Source: an uncultured Pelagibacteraceae bacterium (GTDB taxonomy: Bacteria > Pseudomonadota > Alphaproteobacteria > Pelagibacterales > AG-422-B15). From it: a stretch of DNA of 64,000 nt. Made by a program: the position numbers and the translations under genes. The stretch spans positions 24,395 through 88,394 of the forward strand of contig CABZHO010000002.1 in NCBI GenBank assembly GCA_902525595.1. Direction: 5' to 3'. The notes beneath the pieces are model-generated. The model did not search any database. It had not been told where the DNA came from and saw only the letters and a program-made list of their open reading frames with translations. Shown piece by piece: positions 3 through 55,441 of this stretch. Every line of letters starts with the position of its first letter. Position 1 is the first letter of the stretch.

Positions 3-830
3 TACGCAATTTTTCCACACATCAATGTTGAAAAAAATGTTCAGTTTGGTTTAAGAAAACTTGGCTTAACAAACGATGAAATTATCAAAAGAGTTAAAGA
101 CGTTTTGTCGTTGGTTAAATTAGAAGGATATGAGGAACGCTATAGTAGCCAACTATCTGGAGGTCAAAGACAAAGAGTAGCATTGGCAAGGGCTTTAGTA
201 AGACAACCCAAGGTCTTATTGCTGGATGAACCACTTGGAGCATTAGACAAAAAGTTACGTGATGAAATGCAACTTGAATTAAGAACTCTACAAAAAGAGA
301 TTGGAATAACATTTGTATTTGTTACACATGATCAGCAAGAAGCCATTAGTATGTCTGATCGAGTCGCGGTGATGAGCGAAGGTAAAATCCAACAGATGTC
401 ATCCCCAAATGAATTATATAAAAACCCACAAAATATTTTTGTGAGTGACTTTATTGGTGAAACTAATTTTCTAAAAGCCAATACAGAGTTGAAAGATGGC
501 GAGTATATTAATGTAAACATTGAAAATCTTGGCTCCTTTAAAATAAAAAATAATCTCAATATAAGTGAAAATGCTTCAGAGGTTATTTGCAGTGTTCGTC
601 CTGAGACTATGATGATAGATACAGAAAAATCAGATTGGGATATTTGCTTAGAAGGCAAAATTAAGCAAACATCATATTTGGGAGAAATGACTAAATTTTA
701 TGTTGAAACAAAAGAGATAGAAAAAATTATAACTGTATCGTCACAATATTTTGACAATCAGTCTTTCCAAGATGGCAAATGCTTTATCAGCATAAACCCA
801 AACGATATTTCCTTACTGAATAAAAAATAG
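3..830 (+). CDS. ABC transporter ATP-binding subunit, PotA/polyamine-import type (5' end cut by window edge)
   Basis: Frame is open from nt 3. ABC signature LSGGQRQRVALARAL, Walker B LLLDEP, H-loop VTHDQ. C-terminal TOBE-like domain. Confidence 0.85.
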   Translation, partial: YAIFPHINVEKNVQFGLRKLGLTNDEIIKRVKDVLSLVKLEGYEERYSSQLSGGQRQRVALARALVRQPKVLLLDEPLGALDKKLRDEMQLELRTLQKEIGITFVFVTHDQQEAISMSDRVAVMSEGKIQQMSSPNELYKNPQNIFVSDFIGETNFLKANTELKDGEYINVNIENLGSFKIKNNLNISENASEVICSVRPETMMIDTEKSDWDICLEGKIKQTSYLGEMTKFYVETKEIEKIITVSSQYFDNQSFQDGKCFISINPNDISLLNKK

Positions 831-50285: not shown

Positions 50286-52322
50286 CTACTGACTTAAAAA
50301 ATCAATAACTTCTTCTCTTTTTTCTCTTCTTGCTTCATCAAGAGGCGTTGCACCCCATCGATCACGAACATTGAGAGGATGACCATGTGAAACTAAATAC
50401 TTAACTGCTTGCAAACTTCCCTCAGCAGCCGCAAGGTGTAAGGACGTTCGAGAGTCGTAATCTCCAGCATGAACAGGAACTCCTTTAGCAACCAATTGTC
50501 TTAAACCATTAACATCATTTTCAGCTGCAGCAAAAAGCAATTCGATTACCATTAATTCATTATCAAAGGATACCATTTCATCAGTTATTCCATCTGGCTC
50601 TGCTACCAAATGAATAGGCTCTGTATACTCAATGTCTAATTTGTTAAATTCGTCAATAATTTCTTGATGATCATTATTTCTTGCGTCAGAAATTGGATAG
50701 CCTCCCCATCGATCAGGAATTGGTTTTACTCCGTGGCTTAATAAAAACTTAACTACTTCTAATTGTCCCTCTGCAGAAGCTAAATGAAGAGGTGTTCTAA
50801 TATCATAATCACCAGCTTCTAAATCTCTTTGCTGACTTACAAGACGTTCAAGGGTTCTAACATCGCCATTACTGGCAGCCCAGATTGCTTCTCCACAACT
50901 ATTAGCTCGCCATCTTGCAATTGGAAGTTTGGGATCAATTCTGTCAGTATCAGTCATAGTTCCATCGAAAGCATGCACCAGATATTTTTGAGTAATTTTT
51001 CTTGCAACATCAATACCACGCACACTATTGCCAACTAAATCCAGTCTAGGAGAAAAAATACAGATCCCCATTAGCTGCGGTACTATAAGAAGTATTCCCC
51101 CACCGACACCACTTTTTGATGGCAAGCCAATTTCTTGAAAGAACTGACCGCTGCTATTATACATTCCTGCTGTTTGGACAACGGGAAGTACGTTACGAAC
51201 AGTTTTTTGGCTCATAACTCGATCTTGAGTAATTGGACAGACGCCACCATTGGCTAATGTTGCTGCGGCCATCGCAACATCTTTTCCTGTCATTTCTAAT
51301 GAGCAAATACTAAAGTAAACTTTCAAAGCATTTGTGACTGCAGGTTCTACGTAAAAATCATATTCATATTGACTGTCTTCATGAATATCATCGGGCAATA
51401 AAGACTCTGAGTAGGGAATATTACCTGTGGCCATTAGCAAGAAACCTGTTGCTATATTATTGTAGCCTTTGAAATTTTCTTGGCGAGCCATTGTCTTATT
51501 AAATCTAGGCAAGTTAACACCAGAAGTTTCGTCTTTATTCCAACCAATTATTCTTCCGAATTGCTCTCTTATGTACTGGAGCCGATCATTTGTTGAGTCT
51601 TTTGGGTTAATTAAACCAGTAGTCATTATTGCTCCTGCGTTTACCATTGGATTAAAGGGAACTTTGTTATTAGGTGACAAGCTACTACCTCCCATACCTT
51701 TTACCATAAGTGTGAGGTCATCAAACTGCCGACCAGAAGGTTCCACTCCCACATGTCGATTAACTTTTTCTAATCCAAGATTTTCAATTGCAAATGAATA
51801 ATTAAAAGGTTTACACATTGACTGAATTGAAAAATCTACATTCGTATCACCTCGTTGATAAATTTGTCCATCAGTAGTAACAACAGCAATTCCAAATTGT
51901 TCTGGATCCACTTCTGCGAGCGGTGGTATATAACGAGCTAAGTCACCTGATCTATTTGGAAGAACTTCATCATATATTTTATCCAAGTTTCGTGAAAAGT
52001 CCCTGAAGTCTGGCACTGCAAGCTCTCCTCGAAGAGCTTTTTCAGCAAGCAATCCACCTGTTCTTGTGAATGACATAAATTCTTCAAAATCTATTTGCTC
52101 ACCATGCTTTTCTAATTTCTCAAAGAGGCTTTTTAGACGATAGTCCAGAGAACTTAATCCTGCATCAAATAAAGCTTGTTTAAATTGAGTTTTATTAATT
52201 GTGTCTTGGCCATTTTCACACAATGAATAAAATAAGTTTGCCTCTCTTGGTGGACCTTGCGCTTTAAGCCTATCCAATTGGGAAACTGACTTTTCTTTTT
52301 TTATTTGTTCTACGTCACCCAT
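50286..52322 (-). CDS. Glutaminase with eukaryotic GLS-type architecture (EF-hand-like N-domain, glutaminase core, two ankyrin modules)
   Basis: 678 aa. Catalytic SxxK (QSMCKP), NPMVNAGAI, TLANGGVCPIT and GLPSKSGVGGGI. C-terminal DYD.RT.LHLA.AEG...VK.L...DRWG..P.DEA occurs twice. Confidence 0.85.
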   Translation of the reverse strand: MGDVEQIKKEKSVSQLDRLKAQGPPREANLFYSLCENGQDTINKTQFKQALFDAGLSSLDYRLKSLFEKLEKHGEQIDFEEFMSFTRTGGLLAEKALRGELAVPDFRDFSRNLDKIYDEVLPNRSGDLARYIPPLAEVDPEQFGIAVVTTDGQIYQRGDTNVDFSIQSMCKPFNYSFAIENLGLEKVNRHVGVEPSGRQFDDLTLMVKGMGGSSLSPNNKVPFNPMVNAGAIMTTGLINPKDSTNDRLQYIREQFGRIIGWNKDETSGVNLPRFNKTMARQENFKGYNNIATGFLLMATGNIPYSESLLPDDIHEDSQYEYDFYVEPAVTNALKVYFSICSLEMTGKDVAMAAATLANGGVCPITQDRVMSQKTVRNVLPVVQTAGMYNSSGQFFQEIGLPSKSGVGGGILLIVPQLMGICIFSPRLDLVGNSVRGIDVARKITQKYLVHAFDGTMTDTDRIDPKLPIARWRANSCGEAIWAASNGDVRTLERLVSQQRDLEAGDYDIRTPLHLASAEGQLEVVKFLLSHGVKPIPDRWGGYPISDARNNDHQEIIDEFNKLDIEYTEPIHLVAEPDGITDEMVSFDNELMVIELLFAAAENDVNGLRQLVAKGVPVHAGDYDSRTSLHLAAAEGSLQAVKYLVSHGHPLNVRDRWGATPLDEARREKREEVIDFLSQ

Positions 52323-52625: not shown

Positions 52626-53825
52626 ATGAAAATGTTTAGACATTCCTCTACAGTATTAGTTATAGTTGGTGGCTGTATATTGCTGCTGGTTTCATTTGGT
52701 ATACGTCATTCCTCGGGCCTTTATCTCATTCCAATTTCAGAACACATTCAGACAGGTAGAGAGGTATTTGGATTTGCAATCGCTATTCAGTTTTTAATGA
52801 TAGGAATTGGATCGCCAATATTTGGAGCAATCGCAGACAAATATGGCTCATCAGTCGCCGGATTGTATGGAGTTATTTTCTTTCTGATTGGTCTATACAT
52901 GATGTCTCTTGTTGATGGAACTTTTTTATTAATTCTATCTCAAATTATTTTTGGCTTTGGTTGCGCAGGGTGCGGTACTGCAGTTATTTTGGGAGCAGTC
53001 GGTAAAGCAGTAACGGGTAAAAATCAAACCCTTGCACTTGGAGTGGTCATGGCTGCTGGCTCACTTGGACAGTTTTTAATTGTTCCATTAGCAGGAATAA
53101 TGATTGAATTGAGTGATTGGCAGAGATCAATTACTTATTTGTGTTTCATTTCACTAATTATGATTTTGTTTGCGGTCACCTTAACAACTAAATCATTTAA
53201 ATCAGGAAATGACGATAAAACTGCCCAATCGCTGTCCTCTGTTCTCAACGAAGCTTTTATAAATAAAAGTTACGTTCTTTTAACAGCTGGCTTTTTTGTT
53301 TGTGGTTTTCATGTTTCTTTTGTTGCCACACACCTACCAGCTTATCTTGACGATTTATCATTACCTCTATGGATTGGATCATGGTCATTGGCCCTGATTG
53401 GGTTATTTAATGTTTTTGGAACATTATACTTTGGCTATTTAGGTGATACTAAATCAAAGAAAAATTTGTTAGTTATTCTTTATTCATTAAGAGCACTACT
53501 TTTCTTAATTTTTATTTTCTTACCTAAAACTGAAGTTACTGTCCTTATTTTTGCTGCGCTACTAGGCATTCTTTGGCTTTCAACAGTACCTCTCACAAGT
53601 GGTATAATTTCCGTTATTTTTGGCTCTAAGTATATGTCTATGCTTTATGGATTTGCCTTTTTATCTCACCAAGTAGGGTCTTTTATGGGGTCATGGTTTG
53701 GAGGCCGACTTTATGATTTTTATGGGTCGTATGAAGTAATGTGGTGGGCATGCGTGTTCTTAGGATTTGCTTCTGCTGTCATGCATTTCCCAATAAATGA
53801 GAAACCAATAGCTAAAAAAATTTAA
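52626..53825 (+). CDS. MFS transporter
   Basis: About 12 TM helices. I prefer the ATG at 52626 (MKMFRH) to the TTG at 52608. Confidence 0.75.
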   Translation: MKMFRHSSTVLVIVGGCILLLVSFGIRHSSGLYLIPISEHIQTGREVFGFAIAIQFLMIGIGSPIFGAIADKYGSSVAGLYGVIFFLIGLYMMSLVDGTFLLILSQIIFGFGCAGCGTAVILGAVGKAVTGKNQTLALGVVMAAGSLGQFLIVPLAGIMIELSDWQRSITYLCFISLIMILFAVTLTTKSFKSGNDDKTAQSLSSVLNEAFINKSYVLLTAGFFVCGFHVSFVATHLPAYLDDLSLPLWIGSWSLALIGLFNVFGTLYFGYLGDTKSKKNLLVILYSLRALLFLIFIFLPKTEVTVLIFAALLGILWLSTVPLTSGIISVIFGSKYMSMLYGFAFLSHQVGSFMGSWFGGRLYDFYGSYEVMWWACVFLGFASAVMHFPINEKPIAKKI

Positions 53826-53865
53826 AGAACACTACTTATTATTTGAAAATACATTCAAAAATTAA

Positions 53866-53882
53866 TTATCCACTTATCCACA
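53866..53882 (+). promoter_or_regulatory. Two tandem DnaA-box-like motifs
   Basis: TTATCCACT (53866-53874) and TTATCCACA (53874-53882), compared with the consensus TTATNCACA. A nearly pure A/T stretch follows. Confidence 0.35.
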
Positions 53883-53946
53883 AAACAGTCTTATTTTTTT
53901 TATTAAAATAAATTTATTTTTTAGAATTATTTGATTAATATTTATG

Positions 53947-54057
53947 TATCGGACAAGCGAAGTTCCAAAGCCTTTCGGGGAGTTTGTACGGAGTAAAGCC
54001 GAGATTGCGGGGCGCGATAGAAACCTTTCGGGGAATTTGTGGCGCCCCGTTTTTTTT
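53947..54057 (+). ncRNA. Structured GC-rich 5' leader of the LysE-family gene (candidate riboswitch/attenuator, class unassigned)
   Basis: 57% GC (hand count, 53950-54049) against 15% for the preceding 100 nt. Contains a 20/21-nt direct repeat, the hairpin CGG[AGUAAAG]CCG, alternative pairings and a terminal intrinsic terminator. Confidence 0.5.
54008..54057 (+). terminator. Intrinsic terminator (expression platform) 35 nt upstream of the LysE-family start codon
   Basis: 8-bp G/C stem CGGGGCGC (54008-54015) / GCGCCCCG (54042-54049) with a 26-nt loop, followed by T8 (54050-54057). Confidence 0.75.
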
Positions 54058-54092
54058 GTTTTCCCCATAACTTAAATCTATTAAACAAAGTC

Positions 54093-54719
54093 ATGCTTTT
54101 TGATTTTACGTTACTATATCTATTTATACCTGTTTTTTTTGTTATCTCGATCACTCCTGGATTATGCATGACACTCGCTCTTACCATGGGTATTACGATT
54201 GGTGTCCGTAATACGATGAAAATGATGGTTGGAGAATTAGCTGGTGTCTTGATTGTTGCGGGAACAGCCGTTGTTGGAGGTGGAGCTATCATCAACTCAT
54301 TTCCAACAGCTTTTATCATATTTAAATATGGAGGAGGTTTATATTTGATGTATGTTGGCTATCAAATGATAAATTCTAAAGGAGCACTTGCACTGAATTT
54401 AGATGGCAGTCATTCATTTGAAATTAATTTTTTAAAGCTAGCCATGCAAGGGTTTATCACTGCTGTCGCCAATCCTAAAGGTTGGGCTTTTTTTATAGCA
54501 ATGGTTCCTGCCTTCATCAATTACGAATCTAATCTTGCTCCACAAATGTTTGCACTTGTGGTTATTATTTTAATAATTGAATTTATCTCTCTCATGATTT
54601 ATGCAACAGGGGGACAGGCTCTTGGTATTATTTTGAGAAAACAAAATAACATTCGATTAATTAATCGTATAGCTGGCCTGTTGATGGTTGGTGTTGGTAT
54701 TTGGCTTGCTTTGAGTTAA
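54093..54719 (+). CDS. LysE/RhtB-family amino-acid exporter
   Basis: 208 aa with six TM helices and the N-terminal ITPGLCM (TPGP-like) motif. The ATG at 54093 fits the family N-terminus; the GTG at 54039 lies inside the terminator. Confidence 0.8.
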   Translation: MLFDFTLLYLFIPVFFVISITPGLCMTLALTMGITIGVRNTMKMMVGELAGVLIVAGTAVVGGGAIINSFPTAFIIFKYGGGLYLMYVGYQMINSKGALALNLDGSHSFEINFLKLAMQGFITAVANPKGWAFFIAMVPAFINYESNLAPQMFALVVIILIIEFISLMIYATGGQALGIILRKQNNIRLINRIAGLLMVGVGIWLALS

Positions 54720-55441
54720 TTATTTTGAAATAGCAAACCTGGTCCTTGTTTAGTAATATTTAGTGGTTTTAGCATATGCCAAATTAGAGCTTGGTTTGAC
54801 GATATCACAGGTTTTTGTAAGATTTTTTCTGCTTTATCTATAATATTAAATGTTTTTAAATTTGTGCATGAAATAAAAATGGCATCGACATCATTTCGTC
54901 CAATGTCGATAATGGCCCTCAAACTGTCTTCTTCAGCGATTCTCGCAACTACTGTGTCGTCGGTCTCGTTGAAAGAAACTTGATCTTTAATTTTAAAACC
55001 ATCTTGGTGAAGATTTAGTCTCATAGCTTCAGTGACAGATTTTTCATAGGGAGAGACAAACGCAACATTGTGACAGTTAAGATTTATAAGAGCTTCCTTT
55101 GTTGCTTTAATTGGATCAGTAACTAATCTGGATTCCTGTTTACTTTTGATGAGTGTTTCAACTTGAGATGATCCAATTATAGTCGCACCAGAAGTGCATG
55201 CGTATCCAATACTGTCATACTTAATTTTAGGAAGAAGTTCAGAAGCTGTTGGTAAATCAATCTGCATTTGTGAGAGATTTTCGCTAGACACTATCTTATC
55301 GCATGGAATTCTAGAGTGATTGATTGATATATTTGATGGAAGAGTAGCTCTAATCTCTTGTTCTATGGTTTCGTCAGATTGAAGAATTATTAGTCCAAGT
55401 CGTGCATAATAATAATTTTCGTTATCTAGAACGAACTTCAT
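54716..55441 (-). CDS. Asp/Glu/hydantoin-racemase superfamily protein, maleate-isomerase-like (two catalytic Cys)
   Basis: 241 aa. YACTSG (Cys82) and ISCTNL (Cys192) sit at the positions of the catalytic cysteine pair. Confidence 0.7.
   Translation of the reverse strand: MKFVLDNENYYYARLGLIILQSDETIEQEIRATLPSNISINHSRIPCDKIVSSENLSQMQIDLPTASELLPKIKYDSIGYACTSGATIIGSSQVETLIKSKQESRLVTDPIKATKEALINLNCHNVAFVSPYEKSVTEAMRLNLHQDGFKIKDQVSFNETDDTVVARIAEEDSLRAIIDIGRNDVDAIFISCTNLKTFNIIDKAEKILQKPVISSNQALIWHMLKPLNITKQGPGLLFQNN

Follow-up and report, generated by a model that had tools for sequence, protein, structure and literature searches.

The block between an MFS transporter gene and a LysE/RhtB-family exporter gene in the studied DNA is a real, conserved and so far undescribed RNA family of a familiar kind, a leader or a small RNA. 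In the window (the whole stretch of 64,000 nucleotides that was analysed) the conserved RNA extends over about 110 nt of the plus strand, from the presumed transcription start at position 53948 to the end of a U-tract at position 54057. The RNA is restricted to one clade but very abundant in the ocean, and it combines an unusually clean promoter architecture with an internal repeat that remains unexplained.

The element and its genomic surroundings

The MFS transporter gene (52626-53825, plus strand) is located upstream of the RNA in all four lineages in which the RNA was found, named W (the window type), A, B, and C. Its protein is loosely of the oxalate/formate or lactate-transporter type in NCBIfam, with scores below the family cut-offs. 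On the other side of the RNA, the exporter gene (54093-54719, plus strand; Pfam LysE PF01810, E = 5.5e-22) begins with an ATG placed 35 nt past the U-tract. In NCBIfam, the exporter protein is RhtB- and LeuE-like, with all scores under the family cut-offs.

The block at 53948-54057 (plus strand) is characterized by 57% G+C amid DNA of 14-21% G+C. Measured on the window, the G+C content is 0.57 for positions 53950-54049, compared with 0.14 for 53850-53949 and 0.21 for 53800-53899. Direct reading and measurement found the G+C-rich block, the 8-bp stem followed by U8, and the spacing to the exporter ATG exactly as they had been described in a first-pass annotation of this DNA. A covariance model built on 32 sequences recognizes a single copy of the element in the window, with 103.5 bits, and the next-best match (16 bits) is the opposite strand of the same hairpin. 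When folded as a whole, the region differs from shuffled sequences by z = -1.78, and 10 of 200 shuffles equal it. Because the fold beats shuffles only moderately, the reality of the element rests on its conservation and not on folding energy.

Lineages differ among themselves by indels of 1-2 nt, and G-U pairs, which are present in all helices of the RNA, would turn into C·A mismatches if the opposite strand were read. These two features identify the element as a non-coding RNA on the plus strand. A protein-coding reading of either strand was discarded for the same indels, together with substitutions that are G-U-compatible on the plus strand only. The short ORF at 53944-54075 opens before the point at which transcription presumably starts. 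Lineage B lacks its ATG, and the 1-2-nt indels shift its frame, so a leader-peptide attenuator was discarded as well.

Internal repeat and terminator hairpin

Two copies of a 21-nt direct repeat are incorporated in the RNA. The first copy, R1 (AAAGCCUUUCGGGGAGUUUGU, 53967-53987, plus strand), makes up the tip of the 5' hairpin and represents the most conserved segment of the element, with alignment columns A22-C27, G32-A36, and U38-U42 invariant. The second copy, R2 (GAAACCUUUCGGGGAAUUUGU, 54020-54040, plus strand), makes up the tip of the terminator hairpin; it is kept in all lineages and varies more than R1. The chance expectation for such a repeat is 0.01 matches per window, and two matches were obtained in none of 100 shuffles. 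The direct repeat reported at first pass, with its second copy in the terminator, is confirmed by these results, and the second copy is now assigned to the hairpin tip.

The terminator hairpin (54008-54049, plus strand) is comprised of an 8-bp G/C base stem, in which CGGGGCGC (54008-54015) pairs with GCGCCCCG (54042-54049), an imperfect middle helix, and R2 as its tip. It continues directly into the U8 tract (54050-54057, plus strand), which corresponds to U7-U9 in lineages W, A, and B, and to UUUCUAUUU in lineage C. In a window-wide scan for hairpins followed by a T-run, this terminator scored -25.6 kcal/mol and was the strongest in 64 kb. The strength of the terminator thus agrees with the initial description, according to which genes in this DNA otherwise lack terminators; the latter part does not hold entirely, as a second good terminator (-20.3 kcal/mol) ends near position 827 on the minus strand.

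Compensatory changes occur in the terminator stem. Lineage C has C-G at the pair 69:98, where the other three lineages have G-C, the pair 71:96 is found as A-U, U-A, G-C, and U-G, and several further pairs switch between G-U and Watson-Crick. Paired states account for 92.9% of the terminator cells, compared with 34-58% when partner columns were slid, and the observed covariation was reached by none of 500 shuffles. As judged from the aligned sequences, this is a genuine intrinsic (Rho-independent) terminator, with its stem maintained by compensatory changes. Conservation and compensatory stem changes together also support the original suggestion of a conserved, structured plus-strand RNA that ends in an intrinsic terminator.

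Structure of the 5' domain

In the preferred fold, here called fold (ii), the 5' domain (53949-54002, plus strand) is predicted to form a long irregular hairpin. The hairpin is closed by UCGG (53949-53952) pairing with CCGA (53999-54002), and near its tip CAAA pairs with UUUG (53966-53969 with 53983-53986) and CCU with GGG (53971-53973 with 53978-53980). Across the alignment, the corresponding pairings near the tip are CGAA:UUUG and CC(C/U):GGG. Fold (ii) was obtained independently as the minimum-energy fold for lineages W, A, and C. In the rival fold (i), a hairpin with a large asymmetric loop is closed by ACAAA:UUUGU and followed by a small variable hairpin. In the window, fold (i) can be drawn with GCGAA (53957-53961) pairing with UUUGU (53983-53987), in addition to the hairpin at 53989-54001, and it fits about equally.

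Since the 5' half is strongly conserved, the alignment has little power in this part, and support for the fold comes from the single variants L105, L019, L209, and L013. Four coordinated changes in L105 create a helix of 7 bp in fold (ii), where its relative L200 has 3 bp. An A-to-U change in L019 breaks fold (i) and adds a new pair in fold (ii), while L209 and L013 have U-A and A-U in place of the mismatches G·A and A·G beneath the tip. On the basis of these variants, we tentatively prefer fold (ii) over fold (i). In general, the 5' half, and R1 above all, is more conserved than the terminator.

The small hairpin CGG[AGUAAAG]CCG (53989-54001, plus strand) and the UCGG:CCGA closing helix of fold (ii) are mutually exclusive. 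At its fourth pair, the small hairpin has A-U in lineage A but C-G in lineage B; most variants of lineage A (CAGA, CAAA) disrupt the stem, and lineage C has other sequence in its place. Inspection by eye also led us to reject a local 5' hairpin CGGA:UCCG as a conserved feature, as it has 4 bp in lineage C and in the common W type, and 2 bp in lineage B. Hairpin loops differ between lineages, appearing as UUUC, CUUC, CCUC, UUCA, UUUA, and CUUG.

We have also addressed the question of alternative pairings. After removal of the terminator 3' arm, the RNAalifold consensus becomes cross-pairing between R1 and R2, which follows automatically from the presence of the repeat. According to this model, R1/R2 cross-pairing is the only candidate antiterminator. 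Truncated folds and the alignment disclosed no conserved helix that would rival the terminator arms, and no alternative fold comes near the stability of the terminator (about -25 kcal/mol). The small hairpin and the segments UAUCG (53947-53951) and CGAUA (54015-54019) are present as first annotated. The closing helix proposed to form between these two segments fails, as both of its G-C pairs occur in 6-9 of 37 distinct sequences and it performs no better than shuffled or slid controls. The CGGGG tracts, suggested in the same annotation to compete with one another, are invariant and therefore uninformative, and the competition attributed to them is not reflected in any conserved rival of the terminator arms.

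Promoter and upstream box

Conservation starts abruptly at AUCGGA, the first conserved base being A53948. A -10-like hexamer TAATAT (53936-53941, plus strand) is located 6 nt before this base. The pattern TAnnnT, starting at -12 from the equivalent of A53948, is shared by 40 of the 48 distinct upstream sequences available for the four lineages, which is by far the strongest positional peak. In lineage B, the hexamer is part of TGcTAATAT, an extended -10. The match to the promoter consensus is weak (7/12 by hand count), and so is the -35; because of the weak -35, a consensus promoter scan did not flag the site at 53936-53941.

A tandem direct repeat TTATCCAC-TTATCCACA (53866-53882, plus strand), found at -82 to -66, is presumed to be the regulatory site of the RNA promoter. 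The perfect box TTATCCACA at 53874-53882 is the sole one in the 64-kb window, and a copy with one mismatch precedes it at 53866-53874. The 9-mer TTATCCACA equals the DnaA-box consensus, and the box is a candidate DnaA site by this sequence match. The tandem arrangement is TTATCCAC-TTATCCACA in lineages W and B, TTTTCCAC-TTATCCACA in lineage A, and TTATCCACA-TATCCACA in lineage C. Throughout 431 kb of motif-bearing loci, each of the 62 perfect boxes (62/62) is the one upstream of the RNA. A replication origin at this locus was considered and rejected, with no GC-skew turn and no additional DnaA boxes nearby.

The distance between the end of the box and the 5' end of the RNA is 65±2 nt in all four lineages, across a spacer that is barely alignable (13-54% identity). 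Both the box and the -10 keep their distance to the RNA 5' end and not to the MFS stop codon, from which the RNA is separated by 93-428 nt, or more where insertions are present. Where insertions are found, and also in lineage B, the box travels with the RNA instead of the MFS stop codon. The fixed position of TAnnnT and the constant spacing of the box in all lineages point to the RNA having a promoter of its own. We conclude from these alignments that the box, promoter, RNA, and terminator probably act as one unit, with transcription predicted to start at about A53948.

Distribution and conservation

Searches with the covariance model and inspection of related loci disclosed 63 copies (53 + 10), 40 of them distinct, in the four Pelagibacteraceae lineages. 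All copies are positioned downstream of the same MFS gene and on the same strand. A LysE protein search of the genome collection retrieved 80 loci, the relatives being Pelagibacteraceae single-cell genomes. Among these 80 loci, the element precedes LysE solely in those of uncultured Pelagibacteraceae with a LysE identity of 83% or more. It was not found upstream of LysE homologues of 51-81% identity from SAR11 and other Pelagibacterales, Rhodospirillales, gamma-, and epsilonproteobacteria. The covariance model detected no copy in the more distant LysE-homologue loci or in the chance-match loci, and viral contigs gave no match to the element.

In addition, metagenomes were scanned with the R1 pattern AAAGCCNNNNGGGGANTTTGT. 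Among the matches listed, at least 120 in number, about 110 were due to chance and 10 were true copies, two of which belong to lineage C; a scan with this pattern cannot show absence of the element elsewhere. Many more copies were obtained through contigs retrieved with MFS and LysE homologues.

Identity of the RNA between lineages is 60-82%. In the MFS and LysE genes next to it, third codon positions reach 40-54%, and the intergenic spacer upstream reaches 13-54%. Because its identity exceeds that of both third codon positions and upstream DNA, the RNA is clearly under purifying selection. In the loci examined, the element is apparently confined to one SAR11 subclade. Conservation in homologous loci, implied in the first-pass annotation, is therefore found in four lineages and in the covariation of the terminator; it is limited to one subclade and does not include the proposed closing helix.

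Comparison with known RNAs

A search of the whole window at the gathering threshold against Rfam 15 (4227 models, with ykkC/guanidine, glycine, glutamine, lysine, and SAM included) reported two tRNAs only. In permissive Rfam searches of the element from lineages W, A, B, and C, the best match was suhB, with 18 bits compared with a gathering score of 41. The Rfam check thus recovered no family in the four lineages, in line with the first-pass annotation, which could not assign the element to a known class by eye.

The match to suhB/MmgR (RF00519) is weak and recurrent, with 11-18 bits in lineages W, A, and B and none in lineage C. What the two have in common is the format of an alphaproteobacterial RNA of ~80-110 nt, with a terminator followed by a long U-run. 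Membership in this family was rejected, since only a 4-bp hairpin and the U-run are aligned, while 38 core positions, among them the family-defining part, are skipped.

The guanidine-II class is built of two hairpins with ACGR tetraloops, and ANTAR targets carry hexaloops with A at position 1 and G at position 4. Loops of the element are variable, without ACGR or ANTAR hexaloops, and both guanidine-II (mini-ykkC) and ANTAR two-hairpin targets were rejected on these grounds. The element resembles guanidine-II mini-ykkC and HMP-PP thiS (PMC6478431) in its small simple hairpins and in conserved nucleotides in or near the terminator, and guanidine-II also in having two similar hairpins. The difference from both is that the second hairpin of the element is the terminator tip itself and not a terminator alternative.

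The most similar setting is that of the "rhtB element", which Meyer et al. (2009) described before a LysE-type gene in Candidatus Pelagibacter ubique HTCC1062 (PMC2704228). It is likewise a conserved SAR11 hairpin with a U-run of 6-9 nt directly before a LysE/RhtB-type translocator gene, and its authors left open whether it is a regulator or a conserved terminator (PMC2704228). However, it is a single bulged hairpin GAUAGUCCUU-[CUUAGCCAUCUUUAGCUCCCGG]-AAGGACUAUC, unrelated to the element in sequence and shape, and it precedes another LysE paralogue as well as proC and liv genes (PMC2704228). A search of the window for the rhtB-element pattern with up to 3 mismatches gave 0 matches. The survey of HIMB5 by Stav et al. 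(2019) lists no motif beside a LysE or MFS gene (PMC6429828).

Association with LysE and the arrangement in lineage C

In lineages W, A, and B, the RNA ends 29-36 nt before the LysE start. Inspection of this gap by eye, in very AT-rich DNA, revealed no LysE promoter conserved between lineages, so LysE transcription in these lineages would have to pass the terminator.

Lineage C (L105, L200, L209 = single-cell genome AH-287-F15, and ten contigs) retains the order of MFS gene, box, promoter, and RNA. The gene that follows the RNA is a convergent ORF of 87-99 aa. Substitutions in this ORF number 11 at first, 7 at second, and 24 at third codon positions, and its protein is conserved in three contexts, which together indicate that it is genuinely coding. 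The stop codon of the convergent gene sits in the former U-tract, and can be read as CUA within UUUCUAUUU on the RNA strand. The LysE gene of lineage C is ~5 kb away, beyond a 5-kb insertion, where it follows an alternative-oxidase gene at a distance of 6 nt and is not preceded by a copy of the element.

Two lineage C genomes share 93% identity in the RNA, against 78% over the whole MFS gene and 52% at its third positions. Box, promoter, and RNA are thus about 93% conserved in this lineage despite the separation from LysE. Lineage C is also abundant, with its MFS protein indexed in 257 blocks of the collection. The pattern indicates that in lineage C the RNA is conserved independently of the downstream gene. 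SAR11 genomes are known for streamlining, and in a streamlined genome a leader that has lost its gene is expected to decay. Retention of the RNA in lineage C is therefore not what would be predicted for a leader acting only in cis on LysE. The standard layout of a transcriptional riboswitch, as which the region was first annotated, is not maintained here, where LysE is 5 kb off and the next gene is convergent.

Possible roles of the element

SAR11 bacteria have very few protein regulators and are thought to lean heavily on RNA-based control. To our knowledge, only a handful of regulatory RNAs are known in this group. The element adds to them a well-delimited, strongly selected, and abundant SAR11 RNA with a defined promoter architecture, located beside transporter genes.

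We tentatively interpret the element as a lineage-specific terminated small RNA that doubles as a LysE leader, gating the gene by read-through in lineages W, A, and B, and we give this interpretation slightly less than an even chance. Transcription would be started at about A53948 by the -10 at 53936-53941 and the tandem TTATCCAC box at about -70 to -80. The transcript is predicted to fold into two long imperfect hairpins with tips that are copies of each other. The second hairpin and U8 would end most transcripts at about 54057, leaving an RNA of ~110 nt. LysE in W, A, and B would then be expressed only by polymerases that read through, coming either from the RNA promoter or from the MFS gene, and the element would in these lineages act as a gate (attenuator) on the exporter. 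Beyond this, the terminated RNA may play an independent part, most likely that of a regulator acting in trans, which is suggested by lineage C, where box, promoter, and RNA are kept after the link with LysE was lost.

Terminated leaders that also act in trans reportedly include the riboswitch-derived SreA/SreB of Listeria and the trp attenuator RNA rnTrpL of Sinorhizobium. They share with the element a short 5' leader and an intrinsic terminator before the regulated gene, and a second role of the released RNA is plausible here too. Compared with them, the element is a candidate dual-role RNA by analogy, and it is devoid of a leader peptide. RNA-RNA duplexes predicted with the start regions of LysE and MFS did not surpass those of shuffles, and no trans target emerged from these two regions. 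R1, the most conserved segment, is base-paired, which is unusual for the seed of a small RNA and counts against a trans-acting role.

A metabolite riboswitch of a new class is so far unsupported, and we consider it unlikely; the label is not yet merited. In such a riboswitch, the 5' hairpin, with or without the homologous terminator tip, would bind the exporter substrate or a related compound, termination would drop, and LysE would be made. When the 5' half of R1 is held away, its 3' half could pair with the 5' half of R2, forming an antiterminator of the 2:3 type in which the 5' arm of the terminator is looped. The succession of promoter, structured leader, strong terminator, and exporter ATG 29-36 nt further on, repeated in three lineages, corresponds to this scheme, as do the highly conserved nucleotides in and around internal loops of the 5' hairpin, the alternative pairings within the 5' domain, and the R1/R2 cross-pairing that emerges as the RNAalifold consensus without the terminator 3' arm. 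SAR11 is also known for its reliance on riboswitches, and a different hairpin with a U-run precedes another SAR11 LysE-type gene (PMC2704228). However, no known class is matched, and the element is found in one subclade only and is absent before LysE homologues at 65-81% identity. It has simple hairpins with variable loops and no multi-stem junction or pseudoknot. A conserved switch helix is lacking, the closing helix first put forward for this role having failed, and the terminator is far stabler than the alternatives. Lineage C, which retains the RNA with no downstream gene to regulate, is inconsistent in placement with such a switch. The tip sequences could instead be recognized by a protein or an RNA, with a regulator bound at R1 and R2 stabilizing or disrupting the terminator and the paired sites serving a dimer; we rate such a controlled attenuator as quite unlikely. 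It would account for tips kept alike in four lineages, when a terminator can do with any sequence, and for the exchange of the conserved G·A and A·G mismatches for Watson-Crick pairs (L209, L013), which is what a helical recognition surface should allow. On the other hand, the neighbourhood encodes no candidate RNA-binding protein, the defining loops of ANTAR and guanidine-II are absent, SAR11 has few regulators, and lineage C poses the same problem as for the riboswitch. As a general observation, a strong constitutive terminator placed directly before a gene that lacks a promoter commonly marks regulated attenuation; this leaves some probability to a switch controlled by a ligand or a protein, and counts against the small-RNA interpretation that we favour.

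Another explanation, that the element does nothing else than end MFS transcription and shield the neighbouring genes, while the 5' hairpin and the apparent promoter are functionless by-products, appears very unlikely to us. The RNA is found behind the MFS gene and on its strand in every case, it is placed between convergent genes in lineage C, and strong terminators are rare in the window, all as this explanation would have it. Nevertheless, the 5' half, particularly R1, is more conserved than the terminator, the spacing of the box and the -10 is fixed to the RNA 5' end and not to the MFS stop, and a mere terminator would silence LysE in W, A, and B. For lineage C taken by itself, the element could persist as a terminator of the MFS gene and an insulator between convergent genes, which counts against the small-RNA interpretation. 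A more elaborate possibility, to which we attach little probability, is a new class of riboswitch or attenuator built from a repeated hairpin. A ligand or factor would capture the 5' half of the first hairpin, and the freed 3' half would invade the terminator tip and cause read-through into the exporter, while the DnaA-box-type promoter would link metabolite export to the state of replication or growth.

Returning to the terminated small RNA that doubles as a LysE leader, its two proposed activities differ in their implications. Gating of LysE, if true, would bear on the release of metabolites by the most abundant heterotroph of the ocean. A trans-acting small RNA, if true, would be among the first candidates in the clade, as far as is known. 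The conserved tandem site similar to DnaA boxes offers a second, independent experimental lead.

Tandem repeat and spacer upstream of the RNA

The tandem DnaA-box-type repeat TTATCCAC-TTATCCACA, recognized by sequence match on the forward strand at window positions 53866-53882, precedes the conserved structured RNA at a constant distance, 65±2 nt upstream, in all four Pelagibacteraceae lineages that carry the RNA (W, the window type, and A, B and C). Perfect TTATCCACA has a single occurrence in the 64 kb, inside this tandem repeat, and all perfect boxes in 431 kb of related loci are copies of the same RNA-upstream site. No GC-skew turn was found near the tandem box, and for this reason it is probably a transcription-factor site rather than a replication origin.

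The spacer that separates the preceding MFS transporter gene from the RNA is 428 nt long in lineage B (positions 2437-2864 of the related locus L005), compared with 93-132 nt in the other lineages. It includes a conserved stretch, ATGAAAGAATATGGAATTCTTTATCTTGGGG..., which may be a short ORF or the remains of a gene. At this spacer, loci L004 and L015 carry an additional insertion of ~0.8 kb.

Interval between the RNA and the exporter gene

An extra hairpin, UUUGUGUC...GGAUACAAA, lies between the terminator and the ATG of the LysE/RhtB-family exporter gene (LysE) in lineage A (locus L011, 2967-3000), and its 3' side, AUCGGAUACAAA, repeats the 5' end of the RNA, AUCGGAACAACAAA. In lineage W it is the 5' strand of the RNA's first hairpin (its 5' domain) that recurs, as AACAAAGU, immediately upstream of the LysE ATG. 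Neither the extra hairpin nor the pre-ATG repeat was found in the terminator-LysE gap of lineage B.

Lineage C is characterized by an insertion of ~5 kb in the RNA-LysE interval (contigs L200, 3710-9345; L209, 3905-6206; and L233-L242). Its genes encode a small protein, a PLP-dependent enzyme (PALP), an ABC1 kinase-like protein, a photolyase-like FAD-binding protein and an alternative oxidase, the last ending 6 nt before the LysE start. The small protein is Cys-rich, 87-99 aa long, and gave no family match.

Neighbouring genes and other terminator-like hairpins

A convergent gene (54716-55441, reverse strand) overlaps the LysE stop codon by 4 nt in the window and adjoins LysE in every lineage, including C. 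Its product is similar to ectoine-utilisation protein EutA and to arylmalonate decarboxylase, of the Asp/Glu racemase superfamily, with a score of 136 bits, below the cut-off of 318. The MFS gene is adjoined by a 678-aa glutaminase (50286-52322, reverse strand), kept in many lineage W contigs. With an EF-hand_14 domain at the N terminus and ankyrin repeats at the C terminus, this glutaminase follows a domain order which we take to be that of animal kidney-type glutaminase, and which is, to our knowledge, unusual in bacteria.

A different SAR11 LysE-type gene, rhtB (SAR11_1362), is preceded by a conserved hairpin and U9 that end 2-3 nt upstream of the AUG (Meyer et al. 2009, PMC2704228, Additional file 8). 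An arrangement in which a terminator-like hairpin directly precedes a LysE-family gene may therefore recur in SAR11. Among terminator-like hairpins of the 64-kb window, the second rank is held by UAGCUUGUUCUCUCUUGAGGACAGGCUA followed by T6 (~770-827, reverse strand; -20.3 kcal/mol).
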